Shown: piece after piece, positions 13,784 to 62,852 of the stretch | How positions within the stretch are numbered: the stretch's first letter is position 1 | Layout of the letters: every line of letters starts with the position of its first letter | NCBI GenBank assembly: GCA_016180855.1 | Contig: JACPAL010000005.1 | Span: 52,905-116,904 of the forward strand | Direction of reading: 5' to 3' | DNA: 64,000 bases | From: Deltaproteobacteria bacterium | Lineage (GTDB): Bacteria; UBA10199; JACPAL01 | The notes under the pieces: generated by a model | Database searches by the model: none | What the model was told of the DNA's origin: nothing | What the model saw: only the letters and a program-made list of their open reading frames with translations | Translations under genes and position numbers: made by a program

Positions 13784-13877
13784 TTGGACGATCCCCCAAT
13801 TTCCGGAAAACTTTTACCACCTATTGTTTAAATATGGAAGGAGTTTTCCGAATTGGTTTTTTTAAGGTGGTGTTTAA

Positions 13878-13975
13878 GTACTTCGACTCGTAATTACCAT
13901 GACGTATCTGAAAAGCCAAAAAAATCAATCAAATTACTCGCTCAGCACTAGTCCTGAGTGAATAAATTCGTCACC
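13878..13975. repeat. 98-bp repeat element, copy A (inverted copy at 29940-30037)
   Basis: 97/98 identity to the reverse complement of 29940-30037; contains CTCAG-cactagtc-CTGAG hairpin. Confidence 0.9.
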
Positions 13976-14089
13976 TAAGATAATAGAGGGGGTCAAAAAA
14001 GCGACAGCTAAGGGGTTGATTTGCACCTGATTTTTGAACTTTCTGTTTTAAAACAAGTTTGTTATTAGCGGGTTAAGAAATTGGGTCTT

Positions 14090-14105
14090 TGGCACGTCGA
14101 TTGCT
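14090..14105 (+). promoter_or_regulatory. Sigma-54 promoter (TGGCAC-gtcga-TTGCT) upstream of the 14156 secreted-protein gene
   Basis: Consensus -24 GG / -12 GC elements with canonical spacing about 50 bp upstream of the ATG. Confidence 0.6.
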
Positions 14106-14155
14106 TCATTTGGGAAGTGGGGGTGGGGTTTTATGCTTAACGGGGAAGGGATGGT

Positions 14156-15424
14156 ATGAGAGGGTCATTTAAAAAACTTCTTAAACTGACCACGGTATTT
14201 GCTGTTGCCCTTCTTTTTGTCGGGGAGGGCGCCTGCCCGACCCCGGATGGTGGTGACACGACGGGGACGAGCACCGGTACGACAACCAGCAGTAGTGGGA
14301 CCGCTGCACCTTCTCGGGGTAGCTCCAGCAGCAGTTCAACCGATTCGATTGATGATATTGATGAATCTTCCGATGATGCGTCGGAGGAAGAGCAGCCTGG
14401 TGTTGTTCCTCCAACCGCCGGGCCGGTGGAGATACCTGGTCCGTCTGCCTTCCGCTTTCCAACGAGGGTAACAATCGATATCTCCTCGTTGACGGGGGAG
14501 GCCAACCGTTCACAATCTTTGGTGGTTCAAAACCGGTCTAAGAGTGTCTGTACCGGCGGTGTCTGTAGTCTCATCACGATGGGGACTGATCTCGTCGATC
14601 TTTTACAGGAGATTGGGGACAAGGTCTTTTCGTCCGACGGGATGTTTAGCTGTATTGCGGTTGAGAGCTCCGCCACACAAACCTCTTATGACGGCAAGGT
14701 TTGTTCAGCTGACGATACCTACGGAGGTTGGGATCTTCATATTGATTTTGGAACCTTCTCTTCTTCGCGCACCGAGACCTCCCAATGCTCCGGTAGCACC
14801 GTTTCTCTGCCGATCTGTTTCCGTGTCTGGATCCGATCGGATAGTTCCTCTTCATGGCAACGATTTATGGCAGGATTTTTGAACACGGCCCCCGGTGATA
14901 CAACGGGTGAAGGGGCGGGTGCCTTCTGGCTCCACCCGAGTGATTTCTTTCCCAGTGATTCATTGCCGGGCATCGACATGCAGTTTAAATGGAATCATGA
15001 GGACTTAACTGACAGGGGGACGGAGATTGCTTATGGCTACCATGTTGGACAATCGGATGGTGAGAAGGGGAGGGTCCTTGTGGCGGATGAAGAGCTCTCT
15101 TCACTCTGCTTCTCGAAACTCGTGAAGGTTCGGAAATACCGGGAGAGTTTCCTGTTTGGAGGGGCCTCTGACCTGAAGACAGTTGGATTGTGGGATGAGT
15201 GCCAGCCGTACTGGAGCGGTCAGCTCGTACACGACAACATCGGCGGACCGATCGATTGGCAGGACCGGAGTATCTGTGCCTACCGGCTGACCGGGGAGAG
15301 GATCAATTATGGTATTTGTACTAATGCGGGGATTAACTCAGCCTCCGAGAATTTTATTGATCTGCCGGAGACGGCGGAATTTACTTATCCCTCAACAACT
15401 GTTTTCCCTTTAAGTCCTCCGTAA
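14156..15424 (+). CDS. Secreted/lipoprotein-like hypothetical protein with a Ser/Thr/Gly-rich linker
   Basis: Signal peptide then Cys (VGEGAC), low-complexity TTGTSTGTTTSSSG...SSSSSS linker, about 300-aa C-terminal domain; no recognisable family. Confidence 0.6.
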   Translation: MRGSFKKLLKLTTVFAVALLFVGEGACPTPDGGDTTGTSTGTTTSSSGTAAPSRGSSSSSSTDSIDDIDESSDDASEEEQPGVVPPTAGPVEIPGPSAFRFPTRVTIDISSLTGEANRSQSLVVQNRSKSVCTGGVCSLITMGTDLVDLLQEIGDKVFSSDGMFSCIAVESSATQTSYDGKVCSADDTYGGWDLHIDFGTFSSSRTETSQCSGSTVSLPICFRVWIRSDSSSSWQRFMAGFLNTAPGDTTGEGAGAFWLHPSDFFPSDSLPGIDMQFKWNHEDLTDRGTEIAYGYHVGQSDGEKGRVLVADEELSSLCFSKLVKVRKYRESFLFGGASDLKTVGLWDECQPYWSGQLVHDNIGGPIDWQDRSICAYRLTGERINYGICTNAGINSASENFIDLPETAEFTYPSTTVFPLSPP

Positions 15425-18400
15425 GGAGTGCTCCTGTTCAAGCGAACGGAGATTCTGAGATCGCAGTGGATCCTCCAGATAGGCAACTCGATACTCCTCC
15501 GGCAGCAGGGAGGCGATCTCCTGATAAATCGTGCCCCCCCTTTTATCCGGAATTTGGGCGTACGCCTCCGCAGCGATCTCCATGAGGCCGTTTTGTTCAC
15601 AGGTTTTTGCGAGTTCACGCAATCTGTCGTTAAGCTTTTCCTCCGGTGGGAGTCCCCCCTTTTTTTGAAGGGTCAGATTTAGAAGCTGCATTCGAAGAGA
15701 GAGCTCCTGATCGAAACGATCGGAAAGCTTTGCAGCGCTTTGGTACTCCGCCGCCGATCTCTCCGACTGCCGCACCTCAAGGTAGATCTCCGCCAGTGCA
15801 TAGTGTCCCCAACCGTTCAAGAGGGGATCGGCTGTCTTTGTTGCCTGATCGACAACCTCTTCGAACTTCTCACGCGCCTTTTCATGGGATTGGATTGCCC
15901 GGTAGTAGTAGCCCCAGGCCAGTGTGATCCATGCGGTGAGTCCGGGGAAAGGGCCGGTTGAAGTCAGTGAATTAATCCTGCAGAGCATGTCATGTGCTGT
16001 TTGCGAGAGACCGAGGTTCAGATAGAGGAAGGCCCCCTTGAGATAATTTTGTATGATCTGATAAGGGGGGCTCACAAGATTCCGGTATCGGGTTGCCTCT
16101 TCAAGATATTGAATCGCCTCGTGGTACCGTCCTCGGCGTTGCGCGATCGTGATGAGGTTGTCGAGCATGATGAGGATATTATGGAGGTCACCAAGCTCCT
16201 TGGAGAGTGAAAGGGACTCCATAAAATAACGGTCGGCGTCTGTCACCTGTTGTCCCTGAAGCTCAATAAAGCCGAGCTGACTTAAGCTGACGGCGATCTG
16301 GTGCTTCTCTCCCAACTTTCGAAACAGCTCCAGTTTCTCTTTTTCAAACCGCCGTGCCTCATCAATCTGACCGGTGAGGGAGAGGGCGAGTCCCAGATTG
16401 TTGTTGATGAGGAGGCGGAATTTTTCCTTGTCGGGAGTGTTGGGGGAGGGGAGGGTTGTTTTAAAGAGGGTGATCGCCTTCTGGAACTCCCGGGTTTGAA
16501 CATAAACGTTGGCGAGCGCGTTCATCAGCTCACTATGGAGGGGGTCCTTGTCATCGCTCTCCTGAAGTGCCTCAACATAAAATTCTGCTGCCTCATGAAA
16601 TTTTCCGGACCGTGTCAGGACCCAGCCCATCAGCTTTCGTTCCTCCAGAGACAGTTTTTCACGGGGAGGAAAAAGGCGGAGTGCGTCGTTGGGCCGGCCT
16701 GCCAAGACAAGCAGGGGGATCAACTTTTTTTTAACCTCGAGAGTCCCCTTTTTGTCCTTGGTGAAAGACTGGAGATAATCCTTGTAGTTTTCAATCGCCC
16801 GCCGGGTCTGAAAAGTCGACTGATAGTAGGAACCGAGTTCCAGAAGATATCGCTTGGCCCACCGCTTTTCGCCCGATTCAAAGGCGTAGGCGACGAGATC
16901 TTCCAGCGACGGATCTTTCTCCTTCTGTGTGCTGTGCAGGATTCTCTTGCCCTTTTTTTGGCGGAGCAGTTTTTTTTGCCGTTGTTGCAAGAGACGCACG
17001 AGTGCCTCGTTTGGAATCTGGTAACGGGCCTCCATCTGACCGAAGGTTGACTGTCGGTTCAGCAAGCCCCGTTCCACAAGGGACGGAACAAAGATGGCTA
17101 GTTGTGTCATCGGGAGAGCCGAAGAGTCGGCCAGTTCTTCCAGCGTGATGCTTTTTCTCCAGAGGGCCGTTGTTTCAAGGATCGTCTGGGCTTCGGGAGC
17201 AAGCGTTTCGAGATTGTTTTGATAGAGATTTTCAATGGTATCAGGCAGCCTTCCTTCCCCTTTTCCCTCAAGGTAGTATCGGGCCCCTTCTGCAACGAGT
17301 AGCGGAATGCCGGAAGAGAAGGAGGAGAGCCATTCCTCAAATTCGGGCGGTACCTTTTTTCCTCCGAGGAGTTCAGTGAAGTAGAGGCCGATCTCCTCCG
17401 TTGAGAGTGGAGGGAGGGGGTGGATTTTTGCCTTTTGGAAAAGATTGGCGAATGCCCCGTGCGAGGGGAGTGTCCCTTGCCAACTGAGCATGAGACAGAC
17501 GGTCCCGATCTCTCTTTGAACCTGTGCCAGCCACTCGGCGAACAACGGGTCCGAGTCCTGCAGATCATCGGCAAACAGGATCAGCGGGGCCTTCTTGTGA
17601 ACGGTCTTGAGGGAGTGTTCAAAAAAATCGGCCGCTGTTTTGGAAGGAGGGAGCTCAAGCCCCTTGCGTAGTTGTGAGAAGGCATCCTTCTGGTTGAAGC
17701 GGTCAAGCCATAGACAGGGGATCTCCTTGAATTCTGCCTGATACTTGATCTCATGGAGCAGCCGGCTTTTGCCGATTCCCAATTCGCCCGTAAAAAGAAA
17801 CGCCTGACCCGCCGGGTTGTTCAACGCCTCCCTCGCCTCCTCCATCTCCTTTTGACGTCCCACGAGCCGCCCCTCTTCCGGCAGGGGGGAGGCACTGCTG
17901 GCCTCTCTCTCTCCGTAACGATTTTGCGTGTGGAGGTTGATCCAGTTGATTGCGCTGAAACCTTGCGAGACCCGTTCGCTTGGCTCTTTTTTGAGCAACA
18001 TCTCAAGGAGCTTCCGGAGATAAGCAGGAATTTTTGATTCCTCCTCCTCGTTCCAGGTGACTGTTTTTCTCAAGTGCCAGTTGAGTGCCTCGCCAGGGTC
18101 CTTTTCACTGAATGGAAAATGACGGGTGAGTGCCCGATAAAAAACGATTCCTAGCGAGTAAAGATCGACACGACGATCGGTATGGGGCGATTTCAAAAGA
18201 ATTTCAGGGGGTGAATAAAAAAGAGTACCGGCCAGCTGTTTTAACGGCTGGGTCTCAAGATGGGCAACGCCGAAATCGAGCAGTTTTACCTTTTTCTCTT
18301 CGTTGATGAGGATGTTAGGGCATTTGATATCAAAATGAATAATCCTGTGTTTGTGGAGATAGTCGAGGATCTCCAGTGTTTGGATGGCGAGTTCCTCTAT

Positions 18401-18730
18401 CTCCAAAACCGATTTGTTGGCAGTCCCCTTGAAAAAATCTTCTCCCCGAACAAAGTCGGAGAGGATGAGGTAACGTTTCAGTTTGTCGGAATAGACAAGG
18501 TCATGTGGCTTGCAGAGACCAGGGTGTTTGAGCTGGGTTAGCAGGAGGAATTCATTTTTAAAGGACGCAATCCGGCTCGGATTCGATGCGGCATAGAGAA
18601 TCTTGAATGCATATTCCCGGCCAGCCTCATCGAGGGCCAGGTAGACCTCCCCGAACCCCCCCTGTCCGATCTTTCGGATCAGTCGATAATCCTTCCCTGC
18701 GATATGAAGTTCTGTTGTTTCTTCTCCCAC
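15410..18730 (-). CDS. Ser/Thr protein kinase fused to an AAA/STAND-like ATPase and TPR repeats (1106 aa)
   Basis: Complete Hanks kinase motifs (GQGGFGEVY, AFKIL, HFDIKCPN, DFG, SPPE); P-loop FTGELGIGKSRLL; C-terminal half TPR-like; 15-bp convergent overlap with the 14156 gene. Confidence 0.8.
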   Translation of the reverse strand: MGEETTELHIAGKDYRLIRKIGQGGFGEVYLALDEAGREYAFKILYAASNPSRIASFKNEFLLLTQLKHPGLCKPHDLVYSDKLKRYLILSDFVRGEDFFKGTANKSVLEIEELAIQTLEILDYLHKHRIIHFDIKCPNILINEEKKVKLLDFGVAHLETQPLKQLAGTLFYSPPEILLKSPHTDRRVDLYSLGIVFYRALTRHFPFSEKDPGEALNWHLRKTVTWNEEEESKIPAYLRKLLEMLLKKEPSERVSQGFSAINWINLHTQNRYGEREASSASPLPEEGRLVGRQKEMEEAREALNNPAGQAFLFTGELGIGKSRLLHEIKYQAEFKEIPCLWLDRFNQKDAFSQLRKGLELPPSKTAADFFEHSLKTVHKKAPLILFADDLQDSDPLFAEWLAQVQREIGTVCLMLSWQGTLPSHGAFANLFQKAKIHPLPPLSTEEIGLYFTELLGGKKVPPEFEEWLSSFSSGIPLLVAEGARYYLEGKGEGRLPDTIENLYQNNLETLAPEAQTILETTALWRKSITLEELADSSALPMTQLAIFVPSLVERGLLNRQSTFGQMEARYQIPNEALVRLLQQRQKKLLRQKKGKRILHSTQKEKDPSLEDLVAYAFESGEKRWAKRYLLELGSYYQSTFQTRRAIENYKDYLQSFTKDKKGTLEVKKKLIPLLVLAGRPNDALRLFPPREKLSLEERKLMGWVLTRSGKFHEAAEFYVEALQESDDKDPLHSELMNALANVYVQTREFQKAITLFKTTLPSPNTPDKEKFRLLINNNLGLALSLTGQIDEARRFEKEKLELFRKLGEKHQIAVSLSQLGFIELQGQQVTDADRYFMESLSLSKELGDLHNILIMLDNLITIAQRRGRYHEAIQYLEEATRYRNLVSPPYQIIQNYLKGAFLYLNLGLSQTAHDMLCRINSLTSTGPFPGLTAWITLAWGYYYRAIQSHEKAREKFEEVVDQATKTADPLLNGWGHYALAEIYLEVRQSERSAAEYQSAAKLSDRFDQELSLRMQLLNLTLQKKGGLPPEEKLNDRLRELAKTCEQNGLMEIAAEAYAQIPDKRGGTIYQEIASLLPEEYRVAYLEDPLRSQNLRSLEQEHSLRRT

Positions 18731-18777
18731 CGATAGAGGAGCTTACTGTATTTTGAAGCACCAAGAGAAGGGTAATT

Positions 18778-19683
18778 TTAACTGTAAAATTCTTTAACCT
18801 TCTGTTCCATCTCATGAAGGTGCCGGCTGTCGACCACCTTCCCGCGTCGGAGGGCCAGACGGTTGTCACAGAATAGTTTGACGGCCTTTGCCAGGACATC
18901 CGCCTCGAGCTTTTTCCCTTTTACCGCAATCGACTCGAGCGATTCTTTGGATTTGTTGATCCGGAACGCCCCCTGCGTAATGATCGGCCCCTGATCCAGA
19001 TCGGTGGTGACAAAATGGGCGGTGACACCGACAACCTCTACCCCTTTATGGAATGCTTGGGAATAGGCACGGGCTCCCGGGAACGACGGGAGGAGTGACG
19101 GATGGATGTTGATAATTTTTCCCTCATAGCGAAAACAGAATTCCGGTGAGAGGATTTGCATGTACCGGGCCAGTACAATGAGGTCGATTTCATGGCGGGA
19201 GAGTTCCTTTAGAATTTTCTGCTCCTGTTCCTGCTTTTTCGCCGAAGGAAAATAATGGAAGGGGATTTTGTATTGATCCGCGGTTGGTTTGAGTTCTCGT
19301 CGGTTGGAAAGAATCAGACGGGCCTGTCCGTGAATCTTTCCCTCTCTCATCTTCTGTAAAATGGTTGTGAGGCAGTGGGGTTCCTTTGTAACCAGAAGGG
19401 CCACATTTTTGATCCGGCGCTCCTCCAGGACCTCCAGGGTGATCTCCATCCCGATCGAGCGCCCCACTTTTTTTAACCCTTCGCGGAAGAGCGGGAGGGG
19501 TCCTCTGAGACCTGATAGATCGACCTGCATGTTCATGACCAGAAAACCTTCAAGGATCCTCTGGTCGATATCTTCGATATTCAGATTGTTCTGGAAAAGA
19601 TGGGTCGTCACCGTGGCGATGATCCCCTTGCGATCCGGTCCTGCGACCCGTATCCGGGCCATTTTTTTACCCCCTGCCAGCAT
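18778..19683 (-). CDS. purU: Formyltetrahydrofolate deformylase
   Basis: N-terminal ACT domain plus formyltransferase domain blocks (HPSLLPSFPGARAY). Confidence 0.8.
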   Translation of the reverse strand: MLAGGKKMARIRVAGPDRKGIIATVTTHLFQNNLNIEDIDQRILEGFLVMNMQVDLSGLRGPLPLFREGLKKVGRSIGMEITLEVLEERRIKNVALLVTKEPHCLTTILQKMREGKIHGQARLILSNRRELKPTADQYKIPFHYFPSAKKQEQEQKILKELSRHEIDLIVLARYMQILSPEFCFRYEGKIINIHPSLLPSFPGARAYSQAFHKGVEVVGVTAHFVTTDLDQGPIITQGAFRINKSKESLESIAVKGKKLEADVLAKAVKLFCDNRLALRRGKVVDSRHLHEMEQKVKEFYS

Positions 19684-19779
19684 GGAATTCCATGGAGATT
19701 ACCACATTTTGGGCTGATTCTAACCTAAAATTTCACACCCTTGACATTCCGTCAGTCGTTCTCTAAAGATCACCCCCCT

Positions 19780-20031
19780 ATGGCAGTGAAACTAAGACTC
19801 ATGCGTGTTGGTGCTCGTTCAAAGCCGTCTTATCGGATTGTGGTGATCGATTCCCACGCTGCTTGCAAGGGGGCGGCCCAGGAGGTTGTCGGCTTCTACG
19901 ACCCTCGGCAGGGGATTGAAAAGGCAAAGGTTGATGGTGACAGGGTTCGTTATTGGCTTGGGTGTGGCGCCCAACCGTCTGTGGTCGTTGGACATATCCT
20001 CAAGAAGGCAGGTGTTGGGAAGGCTGCTTAA
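19780..20031 (+). CDS. rpsP: 30S ribosomal protein S16
   Basis: [22 protein letters not shown]...GFYDP pattern; the ORF opens upstream but the conserved start is this Met. Confidence 0.85.
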
Positions 20032-20044
20032 TCGGAGTCGTCTC

Positions 20045-20284
20045 ATGTCGGACATGAAAAACCTCGTTGAGGTGATGGCAAAGTCGCTGGTTGATAATCC
20101 TGACAAGGTCGAAGTGATTGAGGTGGGGGGAGAGCAGACGACCGTCTATGAACTGAAGGTGGCCAAGGAGGACTTGGGTAAGATCATCGGCAAGGAGGGG
20201 AGAAACGCCCGGTCGATGAGGACAATTCTTGGGGCCGCCTCCACAAAGATTGGCAAAAAGTCGATTCTTGAAATCATCGAATAA
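20045..20284 (+). CDS. KH-domain RNA-binding protein (UPF0109/YlqC-like)
   Basis: [19 protein letters not shown] GxxG motif; conserved position after rpsP. Confidence 0.75.
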
Positions 20285-20290
20285 ATTCTG

Positions 20291-20983
20291 ATGCAGTTTG
20301 ATATCCTGACCCTCTTCCCGGAGTTTTTTGAGACTCCGCTCAAGACCTCTTTGGTGGGAAAGGGGCTGGAGCGGTCGCTCTTTTCGGTACGGCTCTGCAA
20401 TATCCGTGATTTTGCTTATAACAAACACCACCAGGTTGATGACCGGGCCTATGGCGGTGGGGCGGGCATGGTGATGAGTCCGGAGCCGATTGTCACGGCC
20501 CTGGAGGCGATCCCTTCCCACGGGAAGAGGCGCCGGATCTATTTTTCACCTCAGGGGGAGCCGCTTCGGCAGGAGAGACTCTCCTCCTATCTCCAGTATG
20601 ACCAGCTCGTTCTTTTATGCGGGCGGTATGAAGGGGTGGATCAACGTGTGATCGATCATTTCATCGATGAAGAGATCTCGATTGGCGATTACGTCCTTTC
20701 AGGCGGAGAGGTGGCCGCCCTGGTCTTTCTGGAGGCACTCGTTCGATTGATCCCCGGCCTGCTTGGCAAAGAGGAGTCTCTCTCACAGGAGTCATTTACC
20801 TCATTCAATCCCAAGGAACCTTCCTTGCTGCTGGAGTATCCCCAGTATACACGCCCTGAGGAATTCAGGGGGCATCGCGTCCCCGAGGTCCTTTTGAGTG
20901 GGGATCATTCCAAAATAGAGCGCTGGCGTCAGGAGCGGGCGATGGAGAAGACCAAAAAAAGGCGTCCCGATCTTCTCCGATGA
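20291..20983 (+). CDS. trmD: tRNA (guanine37-N1)-methyltransferase
   Basis: TrmD blocks ([13 protein letters not shown]; YGGGAGMVM; [10 protein letters not shown]). Confidence 0.85.
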
Positions 20984-21046
20984 CCACAAGGTATCGTGGT
21001 GCAGGATGTTGACAGCAGGGGTCGAACTGTTTAGGTCATCCAACCG

Positions 21047-21829: not shown

Positions 21830-22942
21830 GTCGCGGGGGAGGATGGAGAGGATCTCACAACCTTTATGGGTGACATAAACGTCATCCTCAATGCGAACCC
21901 CACCCAGTTTTTCGTAATAGAGACCCGGTTCGACGGTTACAACCTGTCCTTTTTTGAGGAGGGTACTTCTGGGACCGATCCGGGGTGGTTCGTGGATATC
22001 AAGGCCGAGCCCATGCCCTGTCGTATGGATAAAGCCCTCCGGCCTCCCGTTTTTGAAGTCCGTCTTGAAACCCTGCTCTTCCATCGTTTTGGCGACGGCG
22101 GCATGGACATCACGCGCATCAACGCCGGAACGGACAAGCGAGAATCCTTTCGCCTGCGCCTTCCGCACCGCTTCATACATTGAAATCACCTTTGAAGAAG
22201 GGGTTCCCTTGAAAACCGTTCGTGTCACGTCGCCGTGATAGCCGGACTCCAGTGACTTGGGGAAGACATCCAGCACGATTGTTTGGTACGGTTGAAGCGG
22301 TCCAAAACCGATACAGTGCGGGTCAGCCGCCTGTTTGCCACAGGCAACGATCGTCTTTTGTCCCAGGTAACCCCGTTCCATCATTTTGAGCTCCATCAAG
22401 TGGCGCAGTTTCTCGCTTGTGAGTGGTGCGCCGTTCCAGAGGAGCTTGTTCCCGCGGATCCGGGTGCCCCGGATTGTCTGAATCGCAAAACGGATCGCCT
22501 CTTCGGTCGCGCGGATGCTGTTCACAATCTTTTTTTTCTCTCCTTCGGATTTGATCTGGCGTTCGGGATAAAACGGATCAGGAATCGCATCCACCGTAAA
22601 TCCTTTTTCTTCCAGAAGCCGCGCCAGCCGGATCGGAAAATAGGAGGGGACCTCGAGGGAGGTGATTTTTCTTTCGTGCAGAACGGTGGTAAGGATCTCT
22701 ATTTCACTAACCTCCTTCTTCCCCTGTGACTTGAGCTTTCTTGAATAGGAGGAGGTCGAGATGACCTCATCCACCTCCGCCTCTTTTTTGGCGCGACCGT
22801 ATTCAAGATCGGACATGAGCAGGCTTTTTTTGCCCCTCTGCTCAATAAAGATGACCGGGTCCGGTGCGGAGAAGCAGGTGGCCCAATAGACATCGGCACA
22901 GGTCTCGGGACAGGCGATAATGAGGCGTGCTTTTTGCGACAT
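21815..22942 (-). CDS. M24-family Xaa-Pro aminopeptidase/dipeptidase (creatinase-like N-terminal domain plus pita-bread fold)
   Basis: M24 metal-ligand blocks (HGLGLDIHE; VEPGLY; GGVRIED). Confidence 0.75.
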   Translation of the reverse strand: MSQKARLIIACPETCADVYWATCFSAPDPVIFIEQRGKKSLLMSDLEYGRAKKEAEVDEVISTSSYSRKLKSQGKKEVSEIEILTTVLHERKITSLEVPSYFPIRLARLLEEKGFTVDAIPDPFYPERQIKSEGEKKKIVNSIRATEEAIRFAIQTIRGTRIRGNKLLWNGAPLTSEKLRHLMELKMMERGYLGQKTIVACGKQAADPHCIGFGPLQPYQTIVLDVFPKSLESGYHGDVTRTVFKGTPSSKVISMYEAVRKAQAKGFSLVRSGVDARDVHAAVAKTMEEQGFKTDFKNGRPEGFIHTTGHGLGLDIHEPPRIGPRSTLLKKGQVVTVEPGLYYEKLGGVRIEDDVYVTHKGCEILSILPRDLQIL

Positions 22943-23100
22943 GAATTAAATTCCATAGCATGTCGGACCCCGCTCGGCAACTGGGGTTGTAAGACATCAA
23001 TTTAGGGCATTTATCCTTCCTGTAGAAGGTCCTCTAAAAAAACAGGTGTTGATTTATCTTTTAATTTCGGATGGTTGGCAGACGATTTTTTTCAATCACC

Positions 23101-23115
23101 TGGTACGTATCTTGC
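23101..23115 (+). promoter_or_regulatory. Candidate sigma-54-like promoter (TGGTAC-gtatc-TTGCT) ahead of delta-60 gene 1
   Basis: GG/GC spacing is correct; -24 deviates (TGGTAC); would give a near-leaderless transcript. Confidence 0.3.
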
Positions 23116-23130
23116 TCAAGTATACGAGTG

Positions 23131-25455
23131 ATGCGGATTAGAGAGGCCCTTTTTATATCCTTTTTGTCGATCGTTCTTTCGGTCCCTCTTCATTCGGCCC
23201 CGGGGGATCTCGATTTTACCTTTGGCCTAGAAGGGGTTGGATTGACAGACTTTGAGCAGGAGATCGACGGGGTTGCTGATATCGCCATTCAACCGGACGG
23301 GAAAATAATTGTGGTCGGAACGATGAAGGAGGCGAGCCACCAGTCGTTTGCGGTCGCCCGGTTTCTCTCCGATGGCTCTCTTGATACCACCTTTGGCAAT
23401 GACGGTCTCGTTACGGACGACTTTGGCGGAGTAGGGGTCAATCAGGCCTCGGCAGTTGCTGTCAGCAATAATGGAAAGATTATTGTTGTCGGTCGTTCGG
23501 GACTTTATATCGGTGTCCTTCGTCTGACGCCTCAGGGAGCCGTTAATTGGAGGGTAAGACCCAATCCGTACCCCTGGGTTGATATCGCGACGGATGTTTA
23601 TACGCATCCCAATTTAGGCAATATTCATATTGCGGGAATCACCGGCTATTCGTCGACCTGGGTTCCGATTATCGGTTGTCTCCATGACACTGGAACTCCT
23701 TGCACCTTTTTTGGTCAGTGGGAGGAGGGGCGGCCAGGATGGAATGACGCAAACTTCCCCGATACGACACAAGACGTCGCCTCATCCATTGCCTATGATT
23801 CCCATAATGAGCGATTCATCCTGGGGGGATTTGCGGGTGATGGAACGAGTGACCGTTTTGGTCTTGTCCAGTTTGACCTCAAGGGAGATTTGAGGACGAG
23901 TTTCGGGACGAGTGGTTACGTGAGACGCGATATCAGCGGTTCGACAATGGAAAGGATGACCGAGATTGCGGTTCAGGAGTGGGATCAGAAGATTGTGGCG
24001 GTCGGTTTCGGGCAGGTCTCCGGTAATAATCAGATCGTCGTTGCTCGCTACAACATCGATGGGACTTGGGATAACAGCTTCAGCAGCGATGGGTCGACAA
24101 TAACGAATGTCCCCGGTTGTACGAATGCAAAGGCGGCGAGTGTTGCGATCCAGGAAGACCGAAAGATTGTCGTTGCGGGTACCTGCCGTGAGAGTAGCGG
24201 GACACCGCATTTCACCCTTATTCGCTATAACACCAACGGGTCGATTGATACGACATTTGGAACAAACGGTTTCATGACACTTTCCCTCCCCGGAACCTCA
24301 ACGGGCGGTGAAGGGTATGCTGTGCAACTCCAGGGGGATGGTCGGATTCTTGTCGGTGGTATTGCGGATGAAGAGCTTGCCGTTGCCCGGTACTATCACG
24401 ATAATGCGATGGGGGTTACATTAAGTCTGACGGGAGAGATTCCCACAACGATCATTCCCGAACAGACGATCAACGTCGGTCTCCTTGTTCAGAGTGACGG
24501 TCCTGACGACGGTTCTGCTGAGTTAACGGCCTATTTCCCTCTGCAGACGGAATTTGTCTCCTCCTCTCTCTCCGGCTGTACGTCGACGGTGGTAAATTAT
24601 TGCGGTCTGCTCCACACCACGACCGTTTGCGGAGATCACCGGCGGGTTCGATGTCCTGTTGGGACGCTTGCTTCGGGGGCTTCTCTGCCGGTCACCCTCT
24701 CCGTCCGTCCCAAGGCGGTTGGCCCGTTTGAGAGTCGCGTTGAAGTTGTCGGGGAGTTTTTGGATTTTGATCTGTCTAATAATGTAACATCCTGGGGACG
24801 AACCGTCGTGGCTGCGGCGAATCTTGGTGTCACGATTGAGAATGGATCATCCCTGGTTGTTGGAGATGAATCGAGTTTTCGCGTCTCTGTTGAGAACCAT
24901 GGCCCCAATAATACGACGGGAGTTGTCTTGACGCTTGAGCTTTCTGACAGTGCTATTTTTGAATCGACCAGTTCCAGCCTCTGTCATGGTGAGTCACCGG
25001 TCATCTGTGATATTGGCTCGCTGGCGTCCGGTGCCTCCTTTGAGGTTGAGTTAACATTCTCCTCCAATCAGGAGGGGAAGATCCTGCTCGATGCCTCTAC
25101 CTCCTCCGCAATTATGGATCCAGACAGCTCGGATAACACAAAAAGAGGAGAGATAACCTCCTCATTGTCGGAAGAGGAGATTGAAGAGGAGGAGAGCCGT
25201 CTCTGTTTCTTCAATGGTTCCCGTTGTCGGGATGAGGAGACCGAGGAGGAGGAGCCTCCCTCCGGTTGCCAACCCGGTGATCCCGGTTGTAATACGACGG
25301 GGCAAGGCAACCTGAATCAGACAGTTGCAGAGGCCGGTGGTTGCGGTTGCCGGATCGCCTCCAATACGAGTGGCCCCGATTCAACAGCCCTTCTCTTCCT
25401 GTTTTTCCTGATTCCACTTGCCTGGGTACGTTTTGGTAGAGACTGGGGTCTGTAA
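23131..25455 (+). CDS. Secreted delta-60-repeat (beta-propeller) protein with DUF11/CARDB-like surface-repeat domains and a C-terminal GCGC-type sorting signal (MYXO-CTERM-like)
   Basis: Repeated LDTTFGNDG...NGKIIVVG units; DUF11/CARDB-like segments; tail AGGCGCRIASNTSGPDSTALLFLFFLIPLAWVRFGRD; start taken at MRIREALF (signal peptide). Confidence 0.7.
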   Translation: MRIREALFISFLSIVLSVPLHSAPGDLDFTFGLEGVGLTDFEQEIDGVADIAIQPDGKIIVVGTMKEASHQSFAVARFLSDGSLDTTFGNDGLVTDDFGGVGVNQASAVAVSNNGKIIVVGRSGLYIGVLRLTPQGAVNWRVRPNPYPWVDIATDVYTHPNLGNIHIAGITGYSSTWVPIIGCLHDTGTPCTFFGQWEEGRPGWNDANFPDTTQDVASSIAYDSHNERFILGGFAGDGTSDRFGLVQFDLKGDLRTSFGTSGYVRRDISGSTMERMTEIAVQEWDQKIVAVGFGQVSGNNQIVVARYNIDGTWDNSFSSDGSTITNVPGCTNAKAASVAIQEDRKIVVAGTCRESSGTPHFTLIRYNTNGSIDTTFGTNGFMTLSLPGTSTGGEGYAVQLQGDGRILVGGIADEELAVARYYHDNAMGVTLSLTGEIPTTIIPEQTINVGLLVQSDGPDDGSAELTAYFPLQTEFVSSSLSGCTSTVVNYCGLLHTTTVCGDHRRVRCPVGTLASGASLPVTLSVRPKAVGPFESRVEVVGEFLDFDLSNNVTSWGRTVVAAANLGVTIENGSSLVVGDESSFRVSVENHGPNNTTGVVLTLELSDSAIFESTSSSLCHGESPVICDIGSLASGASFEVELTFSSNQEGKILLDASTSSAIMDPDSSDNTKRGEITSSLSEEEIEEEESRLCFFNGSRCRDEETEEEEPPSGCQPGDPGCNTTGQGNLNQTVAEAGGCGCRIASNTSGPDSTALLFLFFLIPLAWVRFGRDWGL

Positions 25456-25485
25456 ACCTTCCTTTGAATTCGGTCATCATCTCAA

Positions 25486-25510
25486 CACCATGAAAGCAAT
25501 GGTATTTTTT
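25486..25510 (+). terminator. Weak Rho-independent terminator after delta-60 gene 1
   Basis: ACCAT-gaaagca-ATGGT hairpin followed by ATTTTTT. Confidence 0.4.
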
Positions 25511-25521
25511 AACGATCGTAT

Positions 25522-25537
25522 TGGCATTTCACTTGCA
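25522..25537 (+). promoter_or_regulatory. Sigma-54 promoter (TGGCAT-ttcac-TTGCA) for delta-60 gene 2
   Basis: Canonical -24/-12 spacing; ATG at 25552 with an aagg RBS in between. Confidence 0.6.
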
Positions 25538-25551
25538 GTTCTACCTAAGGC

Positions 25552-27396
25552 ATGAGGAAAATATACCTTACTCTGTTCGCGCTCCTTTTAATGACCGGTC
25601 AGCTTTTTGCGGGCCTTGATGATTTAGATACGAGCTTTGGCCCGGCTGGGACCGGGATTGTCACGCTCGATCTGGACGTAGCGGACGCGAGTGACAAGAC
25701 GGTTATCAACGATGTTGAGATTCAAGCGGATGGCAAGATCGTCGTCGCGGGATATCATCTGCAGGGAACCGATAATGACATTGTTCTGGCCCGGTTTAAT
25801 GCCGATGGGACGATTGATAGTTCATTCGGAGCGGATGGTAATGGTGTTGTTATTACCGATTTGGGAACCGATCAGGATATCGGTTATGCGCTCTCGCTTG
25901 GCTCTAGTGGTGGCAAAATTGTCGTTGCGGGTGAGAAGGACGGAAATTTTGCGGTCCTTCGCTATAACACCAATGGGACTCTCGATACGAGTTTTGACAC
26001 CGACGGCATTGTGACAACCGACTTTGGGGGTGCCGATACCGCACGGGATGTTGTTGCTATCTTTGGCGGGGGAATCGTTGCTGTGGGATACTCTGTGGGG
26101 TCAGGGGCTGCGACCGACTTCGCCCTGGCCAAATATACAAGCTCTGGTGCCCTGGATCCCGCCTTTGATGGGGCCTCGTCCGGCAATGGAAAATTCAAGA
26201 CCGATTTTGGGAGTTCTGACAAGGCGTATGCCTTTGCCTTTGTTGGTTCCCGGCTTATTGTTGCCGGTCAGTCCGCAAACAATTTCGCCCTAGCCAAGTA
26301 TAATGCCACTACGGGGGCACTCGATACGACCTTTGATGGGGATGGAAAGCTCACGACCGATTTTGGCGGCTCTGATGCGGCCTACGCGATAAAGACAGTC
26401 GGGACGACCTCTCTCATTGTTGCCGGCAAGGGTGGAAATGACTTTGCCATGGCGAAATACTTGAACTCCAACGGGGCGCTCGATACGACCTTCAGCGGTG
26501 ACGGGAAGCTCACGACCGATATCGGGGCCTCATCCGTTGACTATGCCAATGACCTTGTGATCGACAATTCCACCAGTACAATTCTTGTTGCCGGAAAGGC
26601 GGGGGGCGATTTTGGGATTGCCCGTTACGATTTCAGCGGCACTCTTGATCCTGCTTTTGATTCGGATGGGAAGCTCACCCTCAATTTGGGGGGTGATCAG
26701 GACATTCCGACCTCCATTGAGCTGCTGTCTAACGGCAGGTTTCTTGTTGGCGGAAAGAAGGGGGTTGGGGGCAGTGTGGGAGAGATGGCGCTCGTCCAAT
26801 ACGGCTCTTACTCGGCCGATGCCAGTGTCTCCCTTACAGCGAGTGCTGATTCGATCCTCGTCGGATCGGAGGTCACTTATACGATTGGGCTTTCCAATAA
26901 CGGGTTGGATACAATGACGGTCTATGGTCTCGATGCTGACTTCGATTCATCGTTTGAATTTGTCTCTGTCGCAATCACCCAAGGGACCTGTGAGTTTTAT
27001 GAGGGGGATAACGAGCTTAATTGTGGAGGTATTGGCCCCTTGGCAGGTGGAGGGTTTGTTGAGGTGACATTGGTCTTGAAGGCAACGGTCGCTGGTTCGT
27101 TAAACGGCTGGGCCGGAGTCTCTGCCTCCCCCGACAATAACAGTTCAAACGACAGCATAACCCTTATTGTAACAGCGTTTGCTACGGAAGAGGAGTTGCC
27201 TCCTCGTTGCGGTGACGATCAGTGTGGTGGCGATGAGAGCTGCTCCAGTTGTGAGGCCCCTCTATCAATATTCCTGGTGGAACGACCCCCGGCACTCCTG
27301 GCACTCAACAGAATGTCACGGTTGGTGAGGCGGGCGGTGCGGGCGGTTGCTCGATGTTGGGAAACGAGTCGTCCCGATCAACCGACCTTCTGCTGA
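25552..27396 (+). CDS. Secreted delta-60-repeat protein with DUF11/CARDB-like domains; the C-terminal sorting tail is displaced into another frame (frameshift near 27250-27270)
   Basis: Signal peptide MRKIYLTLFALLLMTGQLFA; delta-60 repeats; the alternate frame from about 27251 to about 27466 encodes GEAGGAGGCSMLGNESSRSTDLLLTILLTGISLLMIWRD, matching paralog 1's tail. Confidence 0.7.
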   Translation: MRKIYLTLFALLLMTGQLFAGLDDLDTSFGPAGTGIVTLDLDVADASDKTVINDVEIQADGKIVVAGYHLQGTDNDIVLARFNADGTIDSSFGADGNGVVITDLGTDQDIGYALSLGSSGGKIVVAGEKDGNFAVLRYNTNGTLDTSFDTDGIVTTDFGGADTARDVVAIFGGGIVAVGYSVGSGAATDFALAKYTSSGALDPAFDGASSGNGKFKTDFGSSDKAYAFAFVGSRLIVAGQSANNFALAKYNATTGALDTTFDGDGKLTTDFGGSDAAYAIKTVGTTSLIVAGKGGNDFAMAKYLNSNGALDTTFSGDGKLTTDIGASSVDYANDLVIDNSTSTILVAGKAGGDFGIARYDFSGTLDPAFDSDGKLTLNLGGDQDIPTSIELLSNGRFLVGGKKGVGGSVGEMALVQYGSYSADASVSLTASADSILVGSEVTYTIGLSNNGLDTMTVYGLDADFDSSFEFVSVAITQGTCEFYEGDNELNCGGIGPLAGGGFVEVTLVLKATVAGSLNGWAGVSASPDNNSSNDSITLIVTAFATEEELPPRCGDDQCGGDESCSSCEAPLSIFLVERPPALLALNRMSRLVRRAVRAVARCWETSRPDQPTFC

Positions 27397-27456
27397 CGAT
27401 CCTTCTGACGGGGATCTCTCTCCTCATGATCTGGCGGGACTCGCTCAAACGGACGA

Positions 27457-28551
27457 TTAAACATTAAATCTGAAGAAGAGGATATCGCCGTCCTTGACGA
27501 CGTAGTCTTTCCCTTCCAGGCGCATTTTCCCTGCCTCCCGGACCTTGAGTTCAGAGCCGTAGGTGAGCAGGTCATCATAATGGTAGCATTCAGCCCGGAT
27601 AAACCCTTTTTCAAAGTCGGAATGAATAATACCGGCCGCTTGCGGCGCCTTTGTCCCCCGATTGATCGTCCAGGCCCGTACCTCCTTCGGGCCGGCGGTG
27701 AAATAGGTTGTGAGGCCGAGCAAACGGTATCCGGCATGGGCGAGTTGGTCGAGTCCTGATTCTTTGAGTCCGATCTCCTTGAGAAAGGCAGGGCGTTCCT
27801 CCGGCGGGAGGGCGGCGATCTCCGATTCGATCTTTCCACTGATCGTCACGACCTCGGATCCCTGTTTTTGGGCCAGTTCACACAACGCCTCTACTTTTGC
27901 ATTGGATGAAGCAAGGTCCGACTCTGAGACATTGGCGACATACAAGATCGGTTTGGAGGTGAGCAGGAAGAGGTCTCTTATGAACGGCCTCTCCTCCTCT
28001 GAAAGTGGGACCGTTCTTGCGGGTCGTCCCTCCCCGAGCGCCTGTTGAACCTTTTGATAAACAGGGAGGCAGAGCGCGGCCTCCTTGTCTCCGACCTTCG
28101 CCTGCTTCTCCGTTTTTTCAAGTCGCTTGGTGATTGCCTCAAGATCGGCGAGCATCAGTTCCGTCTCAATCACACCGACATCCCGAAGCGGATCGACACC
28201 TCCATGGACATGAACGACATTTGCGTCGTCAAAACAGCGGACAACATGTGCGATCGCATCGACCTCGCGGATATGGGCGAGGAACTGGTTCCCCAGCCCC
28301 TCGCCTTTAGAGGCCCCCTCGACGAGGCCGGCGATATCGACGAACTCGATTGTTGTTGGGGTTGTCTTCTGCGGTTTGAAGATCTCGGTCAACTTCTGAA
28401 GCCGTTCATCCGGCACGGAGACGACGCCGACGTTCGGTTCAATTGTGCAAAACGGATAGTTCTCCGCCGCCACACCGGCGGCCGTCATCGCGTTAAAGAG
28501 GGTCGACTTGCCGACGTTGGGCAGTCCAACAATACCGCATCGAAATCCCAT
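27457..28551 (-). CDS. ychF: Ribosome-binding ATPase YchF/Ola1
   Basis: [16 protein letters not shown]1 motif, TGS C-terminal domain; the conserved start is the Met at MGFRCGIVG. Confidence 0.85.
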
Positions 28552-28614
28552 AGGTTTGGCGACTATAAGGGGATCTTGATGGGGATACAACAACTTCTCT
28601 GACTTAAGCCGATT

Positions 28615-29829
28615 TCAGGAATCCCAGGATTCCAAAGTTTCATACAACAAGTGGGGCGGAATGATTCGGTGGGTTCCCTCTTTTGCGGGATGAGGAGTGC
28701 GGCAAATAAGAACCGTCTGGACTTTAAATTTTTTGTCCTCCATCAATGTTCGGAAGGTTTGAAGGTGAGCAAGATCTGTCCGCCTAAACCCTTGGGACCA
28801 TTTGACTTCGATAGCTAGAAGATTATTGCCTCTCTTCATAATCCAATCGATTTCCCGTTTCTGTGTTGTCCTCCAATAATATAAGTGTATGGGAGGCTCC
28901 TGATTATTCATCCAGCCGATGAGCTCCAGTCCAACCCACTGTTCAAAGAGGCTTCCATATTCTGGCTGAAGAGCCTTTTCATCCAACATCCTTTCTGCAG
29001 CGGCATTGCGCACACCGAGATCAAATAAAAGAAGCCTTGGTGTTGAGAGCCATGTCTTTGTGTCACTCAAAGAAAAACCGGGAATGAGATAAGCAGTCAA
29101 CGTATCAACCAAAACCTCGACATGGTGTTTAATTGTATTGATGCTGGCCCCGGCCTCCTGGCTTAAGGAGGAATAGTTGAGGAGGGTACCTGATCGGGAA
29201 GCCATGACGACAAGAAATCGCCCAAATTGTCCCACATCTTTTGTCAGGGCATCCCCCAAAATTTCTTGTTCCAAATAGGTCTGAACATAGCTTCGCAAAT
29301 GTCTGGCCATTCTGGATGCGGGCATTTTTTGAATGCCCGGCAAATTTCCGCGGGTCATCATGGATAATAGAAGTTTGTCCCGTTCGTCGGCTGTTTTTGC
29401 ATCGTAGTAACCGAGTTCTTTTGCAGTGAGTGGACCCAGGTGCCATTGGAGGACACGTCCTGGGAGTGTATTCACTGCGCCGCGTTTGATTTTTCTGGCA
29501 CTCGACCCGGTCAAAAGAGTTTGATAGGGATGTTCTTTGTCATCCAGTAAAACCTGGACAGCGTCAAAGATAAGCGGGACTTTTTGAACCTCGTCTATGG
29601 TGAAAAGTCCTCCCTGAGGAAGTCTGGCTCGGACCTCACTTGCCAAAAGTCCCGGGTTCTTGGCAATCTGAAGTCTTTCATTCGGTTCGGCAAAATTGTA
29701 GTGAATCGCTTCAGGACAAAGAAGGTTTAAAAGAGTTGTTTTCCCCGTTTGTCTGGGACCTAAAACAAGAACGGAATCTCCTTCTTTAAGCAGGTTTTGA
29801 AGGCCTAAAAGGGCCTTTCGCTTGTACAC
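28615..29829 (-). CDS. AAA+ ATPase of the DUF4143 family, paralog 2 (GTG start)
   Basis: Walker A GPRQTGKTTLL; DUF4143-like C-terminal region; paralog of 8226-9368. Confidence 0.75.
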   Translation of the reverse strand: MYKRKALLGLQNLLKEGDSVLVLGPRQTGKTTLLNLLCPEAIHYNFAEPNERLQIAKNPGLLASEVRARLPQGGLFTIDEVQKVPLIFDAVQVLLDDKEHPYQTLLTGSSARKIKRGAVNTLPGRVLQWHLGPLTAKELGYYDAKTADERDKLLLSMMTRGNLPGIQKMPASRMARHLRSYVQTYLEQEILGDALTKDVGQFGRFLVVMASRSGTLLNYSSLSQEAGASINTIKHHVEVLVDTLTAYLIPGFSLSDTKTWLSTPRLLLFDLGVRNAAAERMLDEKALQPEYGSLFEQWVGLELIGWMNNQEPPIHLYYWRTTQKREIDWIMKRGNNLLAIEVKWSQGFRRTDLAHLQTFRTLMEDKKFKVQTVLICRTPHPAKEGTHRIIPPHLLYETLESWDS

Positions 29830-29836
29830 ATATGCA

Positions 29837-29865
29837 AATATATCTTATTAATTTGCATATATCAA
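29837..29865 (-). promoter_or_regulatory. Sigma-70-like promoter (TTGATA-N17-TATATT) giving a leaderless transcript of ATPase paralog 2
   Basis: -35/-10 with 17-bp spacer; -10 ends about 8 nt before the GTG start; a 10-bp inverted repeat ATATGCAAAT/ATTTGCATAT overlaps it. Confidence 0.4.
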
Positions 29866-29939
29866 CTTGAATTGTTGGCACAACTTCTAGCCCTTGACCT
29901 GCTCTGCTGGTGTGACTAAATCCTTCGATTCATAAATTC

Positions 29940-30037
29940 GGTGACGAATTTATTCACTCAGGACTAGTGCTGAGTGAGTAATTTGATTGATTTTTTTGGC
30001 TTTTCAGATACGTCATGGTAATTACGAGTCGAAGTAC
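29940..30037. repeat. 98-bp repeat element, copy B (inverted relative to 13878-13975)
   Basis: Single mismatch against copy A; ends 3 bp before the apbC/mrp ATG. Confidence 0.9.
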
Positions 30038-30040
30038 TAA

Positions 30041-31527: not shown

Positions 31528-31528
31528 A

Positions 31529-62793: not shown

Positions 62794-62852
62794 GCTCAGC
62801 CGAACGGTAAGAGGGGGTAGGGGGCGTTATGGATAATGAAGGAGATAACAAC

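Follow-up and report, generated by a model that had tools for sequence, protein, structure and literature searches.

The stretch of DNA analysed in this study (64 kb, hereafter the window) contains two nearly identical repeats in inverted orientation, which flank 16 kb of housekeeping genes and raise the question of whether they are insertions of a mobile element, copies of a small-RNA gene, or the arms of an invertible segment. A repeat search over the 64-kb window returned the pair at 13874-13978 and 29937-30041 with a length of 105 nt and 97% complementarity. The runner-up inverted pair reached merely 33 nt and 76%, which excludes a chance origin of the 105-nt repeat. Over element positions 1-97, one base separates copy A from copy B (G at 13940 versus A at 29975, read on the element strand), and the near-identical pair described in the original prediction is therefore real. 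The analyses described below indicate that the two repeats very probably arose by separate, independent insertion of a non-autonomous DNA transposon (MITE) of 116 bp.

The repeat unit had been given as 98 bp, which turned out to be too short. Copy B (29921-30036, minus strand) is full length with 116 bp, as seen from end-to-end alignment with family members, and runs on for 19 nt (29921-29939), as does copy A of the sister strain L001. On the minus strand, copy B comprises the right TIR (29921-29946), the internal hairpins HP2 (29934-29951) and HP1 (29954-29977), and the left TIR (30011-30036). Copy A lies on the plus strand and covers element positions 1-97 of 116 (13879-13975), including the left TIR (13879-13904) and HP1 (13938-13961, with the G at 13940). 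In this assembly it is short of 20 bp including the right end, and these are retained in L001 and in the Logan contig L013 of the same haplotype. The TIRs, TACTTCGACTCGTAATTACCATGACG and CGTCACCGAATTTATGAATCGAAGGA, are imperfect and 26 nt long, with 19 of 26 terminal positions complementary in copy B. HP1 is a conserved internal palindrome with a CTWAG-like motif at its centre; its 8-bp stem in copy B (TCACTCAG/CTGAGTGA), of which one pair is G.T in copy A, confirms the predicted internal hairpin. HP2, a second conserved internal palindrome, overlaps the right TIR. The element is AT-rich (36% GC, compared with ~51% in the window) and non-coding, as no ORF of at least 60 aa overlaps copy A or B. 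Both copies are intergenic, also in agreement with the prediction.

Each copy carries its own target-site duplication. TTAAG precedes copy A (13874-13878, plus strand) and, in L001 and L013, also stands directly after the intact copy A; alignment to these two (...CGAAGGA/TTAAG/ATAAT) identified TAAG at 13976-13979 (plus strand) as the remnant of the right duplication. Copy B is bordered by TTTAG on the element strand, i.e. CTAAA on the plus strand, at 29916-29920 and 30037-30041 (both minus strand). About 8 bp of additional similarity had been noted on one flank of the repeats, and this is the resemblance of the two duplications, TTAAG and TTTAG.

For copy B, an allele without the element was available. 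In L010 and L016, which originate from the same metagenomes, ychF and apbC are 53 nt apart with one CTAAA between them and no element. The apbC identity to this element-free allele is 100% for L010 and 97.8% for L016. From CTAAATGCC onwards the right flanks are identical, the identity starting exactly at the duplication at 30037-30041. Left of copy B, the sequence is homologous to the element-free intergenic region but diverged from it, and CTTGACC is equally distant from CTAAA in both. The element-free allele is not a clean excision-type match, since it is diverged on the left flank and has no DUF4143 gene either. Judged from these alignments, the ychF-apbC allele of L010 and L016 represents an empty site for copy B; for copy A, none turned up. 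Because both copy B alleles (L010, L012) are present in sample SRR12113425, copy B is polymorphic in the source population and thus recent, while copy A, being common to all strains sampled, is the older insertion.

Two copies are visible in the 64 kb of this genome that form the window. In Logan contigs (k=31) from six sequencing runs, the contig always ends 27-31 nt into the element, as is expected of a repeat in such assemblies. These breakpoints were considered as proof of a third copy and then dropped for this purpose, since L013 has an intact copy A and some breakpoints fit the two copies exactly. Other breakpoints, which share 28 or 27 nt rather than 30, are weak evidence of further copies with CTWAG flanks, or of polymorphism in the flanks.

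To what extent the element occurs elsewhere was determined by retrieving relatives with a degenerate two-TIR pattern and with the right-TIR consensus. A database scan gave homologues in MAGs of Syntrophaceae, Planctomycetia and Desulfobacteraceae, and the right-TIR consensus scan gave homologues in at least 120 metagenome contigs. A profile search of the retrieved loci yielded at least 133 distinct elements, with 95 full-length ones among the matches listed, sizes of 102-170 bp, and two full-length copies in each of four contigs. The more than 130 homologues are dispersed beside unrelated genes, such as those for glutamine synthetase, histidine kinases, isocitrate dehydrogenase, a ROK-family protein and UbiD. 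Almost all are intergenic, with one of 91 copies among the matches listed lying inside a long ORF. The exact 20-mer of the window's left TIR had zero matches in the genome and metagenome contig collections, so the window's genome and the sister MAGs GCA_016202325.1 and GCA_016187815.1 lie outside those collections. Two scans of viral contigs gave 0 matches; likewise, blastn found no match in PLSDB plasmids (window copy and family consensus) or in INPHARED phages (window copy). A literature search for bacterial IS or MITEs targeting CTTAG/CTAAG returned nothing relevant. The family is large, apparently undescribed, and seems to be unnamed.

Among the matches listed, 73 of 87 independent family sites have the identical pentamer on both sides (CTTAG at 55, CTAAG at 17 and TTTAG at 1), and the central base of the pentamer co-varies between the two sides even within one subfamily. 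Since dispersed, mostly intergenic homologues are flanked by CTTAG/CTTAG or CTAAG/CTAAG, the element is a MITE inserting at CTWAG. It is short and non-coding, has TIRs and copy-specific target-site duplications, occupies many unrelated loci, and shows a presence/absence polymorphism with a single-target empty site. The TIRs, the duplications (TTAAG for copy A, TTTAG for copy B), the empty-site allele and the family of more than 130 members thus bear out the recent transposition of a miniature mobile element that had been proposed.

For the insertion of the MITE, a transposase supplied in trans would bind the ends of the element and would make cuts staggered by 5 nt at the CTWAG target (TTWAG in this genome), and repair of the gaps would then duplicate the pentamer; the class of the transposase and the stagger are inferred. 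IS5-family IS as well as PIF/Harbinger and Tourist MITEs have short palindromic targets centred on T(W)A, of which TWA (or YTAR, 4 bp) is duplicated, and the preference reported for PIF is a palindrome centred on CTTAG. The CTWAG target is compatible with IS5 or PIF/Harbinger. Unlike in IS5 and PIF/Harbinger, the first base of the pentamer also co-varies on both flanks (TTTAG/TTTAG, TTAAG/TTAAG), and by this pattern a duplication of 5 bp appears favoured over one of 3 bp (TWA within CTWAG). In neither the window nor the 735 kb of retrieved loci did we find an IS5-type transposase or matching TIR, or indeed any autonomous element or any transposase bounded by the ends of the MITE. Half-element matches in long contigs had housekeeping genes as neighbours and no parent insertion sequence, and pairs of TIR cores 250-6000 bp apart were either two separate MITEs or spurious matches. 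ORF families recurring across loci were kinases, ABC ATPases, dehydrogenases and similar proteins, with no transposases among them.

No sequence similarity of the element to Correia, RUP, ERIC or Nezha was detected, nor is any known. In its general properties, the element resembles these and other prokaryotic MITEs (reviewed in PMC10969869 and PMC3184786), being short, non-coding and AT-rich with TIRs and flanking direct repeats, dispersed and mostly intergenic, present in truncated and size-variant forms, and able to fold into hairpins. Its strict CTWAG pentanucleotide target, its spread across phyla and its two covarying internal hairpins are not described for the MITEs covered there (PMC10969869, PMC3184786). 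[quoted passage not shown] It shares with our element the delta-proteobacterial lineage, AT-richness, mostly intergenic positions and size variants, whereas the element described here is shorter (113-116 bp, or up to 170 bp when modules are present), its TIRs measure 26 nt, and its duplication at CTWAG is 5 bp long.

The interior of the element is conserved as well. Across 53 aligned members, both ends are at least 90% conserved, the right end being set by the search pattern. Conservation of HP1 across subfamilies reaches at least 90%, in contrast to the adjacent spacer, which varies freely. Both hairpins show compensatory changes: the HP2 pair 91-104 is AU in 28 sequences, GC in 25 and unpaired in none, and the HP1 pair 63-83 is AU in 39 and CG in 8. 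Longer variants carry GC-rich hairpin modules of 24-28 nt beside or within HP1. As a separate observation, a free-standing copy of the GC-rich palindromic module is located in the window at 62783-62804. HP1 and HP2 are also more conserved than the interiors of MITEs usually are, and a model based on the ends alone leaves this conservation and the compensatory changes unexplained.

We consider it unlikely that the family represents the non-autonomous form of an uncharacterised transposition system, in which the covarying HP1 and HP2 would act as recognition structures and the GC-rich modules would be a smaller mobile derivative. If true, this would explain the conservation of the interior, except for the spacer, across Desulfobacterota, Planctomycetota and the lineage studied here. 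Quite unlikely, in our assessment, is a mobile element other than a classical DDE-type MITE, in which recognition would fall to HP1 and HP2 as part of a hairpin- or single-strand-dependent or RNA-assisted system and the TIRs would be secondary. Such a hairpin-dependent reading draws on the changes at paired bases (91-104, 63-83), on the conservation of HP1 next to a variable spacer, on the GC-rich modules accepted next to or inside HP1 in the manner of structured nucleic acids, and on the target motif CTWAG at the centre of HP1. The constrained internal hairpins and small intergenic copies also recall palindrome-associated elements derived from IS200/IS605 and REP/BIME elements. However, IS200/IS605-type and REP/RAYT-type elements have neither TIRs nor target duplications, the former being inserted 3' of a fixed short motif, and the element described here has both; its clean 5-bp duplications with a co-varying central base and its 26-nt TIRs are of the kind left by staggered-cut transposases. 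Moreover, the covariation in the hairpins may stem from a few inherited events, and the apparent conservation near HP2 is inflated because sampling required the exact 20-mer of the right TIR.

A multi-copy small-RNA gene, or a cis-regulatory RNA (5' leader or terminator) duplicated before two genes, is highly improbable. The former had been offered in the original prediction as another fit to the repeats, and both window copies are indeed oriented alike toward the nearest downstream gene (the activator gene and apbC), a terminator-like hairpin was scored on the plus strand of copy B, and the sole difference between copies A and B preserves a G.U pair on one strand. Nevertheless, Rfam gave no match at the gathering threshold and only one chance miRNA at E<=1, no sigma-70-like promoter was found within the element, and folding gave weak z-scores of -1.4 to -2.4. 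Compensatory changes are present, but they are not strand-specific, and G.T and A.C mismatches occur without strand preference. At ~54 family sites the orientation to the neighbouring genes is even (tandem 19 versus 18, convergent 9, divergent 8), and the target-site duplications and the empty site indicate arrival by insertion.

Equally hard to credit is that copies A and B border an invertible 16-kb segment or a composite transposon that flips or moves as a unit. The arms are near-identical inverted repeats of 97 nt, and repeats of this length suffice for RecA-dependent recombination; in addition, the left TIR of each copy points away from the segment, as it would in a composite transposon, and a ROK-family gene in L105 is flanked by the same arrangement. 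But the separate matching duplications (TTAAG/TTAAG, TTTAG/TTTAG) attest two separate insertions, also in L105, so copies A and B do not form a composite transposon. Between 13.9 and 30 kb, where purU, rpsP, trmD, ychF and the kinase gene are located, no recombinase is encoded. The junction of copy A is identical in two independent assemblies (window, L001), with one orientation only, and the sign of the GC skew is unchanged inside versus outside the segment. The adjacency of ychF and apbC in the present orientation exists without the element and predates copy B. The suggested inversion of the 16-kb segment thus found no support and is a theoretical possibility only. The MITE is ordinary selfish DNA, it is incidental that its two copies enclose 16 kb of housekeeping genes in inverted orientation, and neither a small-RNA gene nor an inversion switch is needed.

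With respect to the neighbouring genes, copy A has the sigma-54 activator gene on one side and, on the other, the sigma-54 promoter that belongs to the 14156 gene. Copy B is located between the conserved TTGACC motif and the start codon of apbC, 13 bp upstream of the gene and not 3 bp as first stated. The apbC start codon is the ATG at 30050, 9 nt past the copy B duplication, and the gene encodes 276 aa according to gene callers including that of NCBI. Truncation of apbC by the element was considered and rejected, as the element-free allele carries the same 276-aa gene; apbC homologues mostly have ~360 aa with an N-terminal PF01883 domain, and among the closest relatives short forms, with 265-290 aa, occur commonly. 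A single mobile unit of element and DUF4143 gene was also rejected, since the element has its own duplication and its left side is homologous to the apbC upstream region. The sigma-54 consensus TGGCAC-N5-TTGC is present at 14090-14104 beside copy A only and was not found at the copy B junction, so that a rewiring of sigma-54 promoter-gene junctions at both ends of the segment, as had been envisaged, fails.

The insertions sit inside regulatory DNA, both at apbC and in the divergent activator/sigma-54 promoter region. Copy B splits TTGACC from the apbC start and is a natural test of the effect of a MITE on expression, since a single groundwater population contains both alleles. The family as a whole is abundant in several phyla of anaerobic bacteria from sediment and groundwater and has well-defined ends and a very strict 5-bp target; it could be used as a strain marker and as bait for its transposase.

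An inverted-repeat search of the whole window paired positions 13874-13978 with 29937-30041 in inverted orientation (105 nt, 97% complementary). As the runner-up inverted pair merely reached 33 nt at 76%, this pair is far beyond chance. Within element positions 1-97, copy A and copy B differ at a single site (G at 13940, A at 29975), and according to profile searches they are the only copies in the 64-kb window. The originally predicted near-identical inverted pair, the intergenic position of both copies (by ORF and gene calls) and the internal hairpin in each were confirmed, while the proposed 98-bp unit had to be extended to 116 bp. The hairpin stem of copy B comprises 8 bp (TCACTCAG/CTGAGTGA), with G.T at one pair in copy A. 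In L001, a sister-strain contig spanning copy A (GCA_016202325.1, JACQOW010000067; 98.4% identical to the window), this copy carries 20 additional bases, GAATTTATGAATCGAAGGAT, also found in window copy B. The complete element (TACTTCGACTCG...GAATCGAAGGA, 116 bp) occupies 29921-30036 on the minus strand at copy B, and its two 26-nt ends form inverted repeats (19/26 positions matching). Its GC content is 36% vs. ~51% for the window. Direct pentamers bracket each copy: TTAAG on either side of copy A and TTTAG on either side of copy B, the latter at 29916-29920 and 30037-30041 (CTAAA on the plus strand, TTTAG on the element strand).

The 20-bp loss in window copy A is private to this assembly, since L013, a Logan metagenome contig otherwise 100% identical to the window, keeps the intact end; it reflects a rare variant or a misassembly. 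Copy A was present in every contig reaching its site, with an identical activator protein in all of them, and no empty site was detected among these contigs. The MAG of the window (proteins MBI2066980-MBI2066994, locus tags HYT77_, NCBI) has two sister MAGs. The Logan contigs (k=31) of six SRR121134xx runs all end 27-31 nt into the element, from every flank. Such breakpoints are typical of repeats, and the repeat is thus no artefact of a single assembly.

For copy B, an element-free allele was identified. The apbC gene is located on two Logan contigs, L010 (SRR12113425, 100% identical to the window) and L016 (SRR12113385, 97.8%), and in both, the element boundary is precisely where the sequence upstream of apbC begins to diverge. 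The sequence there is ...GCAACGA CTAAA TGCCGCC with a single CTAAA; both contigs lack the element and the DUF4143 gene, and reach the ychF start codon (window 28551) 46 nt further on. The window minus the element and minus one CTAAA is a diverged homologue of this intergenic region; the distance from CTTGACC to TAAATG is 17 nt in both alleles, which are identical from GACTAAATGCC on. Another contig of SRR12113425, L012, carries the DUF4143 gene as well as the element. This run therefore holds occupied and element-free alleles, and the copy B insertion is polymorphic in the population. The DUF4143/AAA_14 ATPase gene (28615-29829, region 28554-29915) has a paralog at 8226-9368; without it, ychF and apbC in L010 and L016 are separated by the 46 nt and CTAAA only. 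Its presence or absence between the window and these contigs left no clean insertion signature. Directly upstream of this gene, a 10-bp inverted repeat (ATATGCAAAT...ATTTGCATAT) is located at ~29832-29862.

The exact 20-mer of the window left terminal inverted repeat (TIR) had no match in genome or metagenome collections. A degenerate pattern with both TIR cores at a spacing of 70-100 nt retrieved three elements of ~114 bp in MAGs labelled Syntrophaceae, Planctomycetia and Desulfobacteraceae, which align with the window element end to end. The right-TIR consensus 20-mer matched at least 120 metagenome contigs, and a profile search of all fetched loci yielded at least 133 distinct elements, at least 95 of them full length. 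Sizes were mostly 113-116 bp, with further classes of ~124, 140, 150 and 167 bp among the matches listed. The window copies form a divergent sub-lineage with 66-79% identity to other members. Neighbouring genes are unrelated (glutamine synthetase, CoA ligase, histidine kinases, isocitrate dehydrogenase, a ROK-family gene, UbiD), and only 1 of 91 copies is located within a long ORF. Relative to adjacent genes, neither orientation prevails (tandem 19 vs. 18; convergent 9, divergent 8), so that the shared orientation of both window copies toward their downstream genes is most likely coincidence.

Identical pentamers on both flanks were found at 73 of 87 independent full-length family sites, namely CTTAG (55), CTAAG (17) and TTTAG (1). 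The central base co-varies between the flanks, also within one subfamily, which indicates that the pentamer is a duplicated target outside the element proper. IS5/PIF-type insertions are usually described with a 3-bp TWA duplication. Here, a 5-bp duplication appears favoured over 3-bp TWA within CTWAG, because the first base co-varies as well (T on both sides in the window copies and at the family locus L127). Directly outside the pentamer, T is avoided before and A after it. Among loci L020-L139, CTTAG in element orientation is three times commoner than CTAAG (55 vs. 17), so that insertion is asymmetric as to the central base of the palindromic target.

A non-autonomous DNA transposon is the best-supported identity of the element. 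The original reading as a miniature mobile element was correct, given the TIRs, the separate duplications, the empty-site allele and the dispersed family, all observed directly. A transposase supplied in trans would recognise the 26-nt ends and would cut CTWAG (TTWAG in this genome) with a 5-nt stagger. No transposase domain was found in the window ORFs tested, no transposase beside half-element matches or among recurrent ORF families of the fetched loci, and no TIR pair at insertion-sequence spacing in these loci. Structurally, the element corresponds to a prokaryotic MITE in everything except an identified parent element (PMC10969869, PMC3184786). Identity with Chunjie, a Geobacter MITE of 178-235 bp with 21-bp TIRs and 9-bp direct repeats, was rejected since size, TIR length and repeat length differ from this description (PMC3184786). 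IS200/IS605-type and REP-type elements were rejected as they have neither TIRs nor duplications, both of which are present here. The target resembles that of IS5/PIF-Harbinger elements, which is no more than a lead. The class of the transposase is inferred.

The matching duplication at each copy indicates two separate insertions, and a composite-transposon origin of the pair was rejected for this reason. Likewise, at family locus L105, two inverted copies flanking a ROK-family gene each have their own duplication and are separate insertions. The segment between the window copies (13.9-30 kb) encodes a Ser/Thr kinase, PurU, RpsP, a KH-domain protein, TrmD, an M24 peptidase, two DUF5122 repeat proteins, YchF and the DUF4143 ATPase. 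Homologous recombination between the 97-nt inverted repeats is possible in principle. The suggested inversion of the 16-kb segment found no support: it encodes no recombinase, the copy A junction is the same in the window and L001, the ychF-apbC adjacency exists without the element (L010, L016), and the sign of the GC skew does not change between inside and outside. Sigma-54 promoters had been proposed at both ends; the consensus is present beside copy A only, as a perfect match (TGGCACGTCGATTGC, 14090-14104) upstream of the 14156 gene. A one-mismatch site (25522-25536) precedes the second DUF5122 gene by 16 nt. The activator gene (12743-13783) encodes AAA+ and HTH_8 domains only, without receiver or sensor domain.

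Copy A precedes the start of the activator gene by 95 nt and the sigma-54 -24 element by ~115 nt; it lies in a region where activators usually have their binding sites. Copy B stands 13 bp upstream of the apbC start (ATG 30050, NCBI and Logan calls), between this start and a conserved TTGACC motif; promoter scoring of the element revealed no sigma-70-like site inside it. We infer only that both copies may have local effects on apbC and the activator region. ApbC (30050-30880), a Mrp/ApbC protein of the short type (276 aa), lacks the N-terminal PF01883 domain. Most of its closest homologues (~75% identity, ~360 aa) have this domain, but relatives with short forms of 265-290 aa exist as well.

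Further strain differences were observed in the window. Downstream of apbC, the sister-strain contigs L014 and L016 jump from 30944 to 32385 (gap 30945-32384), lacking a 216-aa ORF and most of a Band_7/SPFH gene, which is another presence/absence polymorphism. A Logan contig otherwise 100% identical to the window has 139 additional nt (L011:2689-2827) at 27257/27258, a near-duplicate of the adjoining Cys-rich coding repeat at the 3' end of the second DUF5122 gene, so that the gene product has 684 instead of 614 aa; either the repeat number varies, or one of the two assemblies has collapsed the repeat. At 11948-12206, a 485-aa hypothetical gene contains a tandem direct repeat (~132 nt, 88% identity); here the Logan contig L003 aligns as two overlapping pieces, which suggests copy-number or sequence variation between strains.

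An alignment of 53 members shows conserved TIRs, two conserved internal palindromes (HP1, HP2) and a variable spacer of ~25 nt; the search pattern prescribed the right TIR, which HP2 overlaps, but neither the left TIR nor HP1. The HP2 pair at alignment columns 91-104 is A-T in 28 members, G-C in 25 and unpaired in none, and the HP1 pair 63-83 is A-T in 39 and C-G in 8, counts that may go back to just a few inherited events. Mismatches of the G.T and A.C type favour neither strand and thus give no evidence for a strand-specific RNA. Together with the lack of Rfam matches for the window or family members and weak fold z-scores of the window copies, this leaves the alternative of a multi-copy small RNA unsupported. 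Just after the amidohydrolase gene (62770-62820), the window contains a 27-nt GC-rich palindromic module (GCTTCGGCCGTGAGCTCAGCCGAACGG, module 62783-62804) mid-way in the otherwise perfect palindrome CCCCTCTTAAGAGGGG, with TTAAG on one flank and TAAG on the opposite one. MITE variants of 124-170 nt harbour modules of this type (..CTTCGACTGAGCTCAGCCGAAG..), nested at three sites around HP1; 15 of 16 occurrences in 735 kb of loci lie within or near MITEs, and the module ends resemble MITE termini (GCTTCG...CGAAGG). What stands out as most unusual is that the two covarying hairpins are conserved across phyla and that some members of the family carry small palindromic modules.
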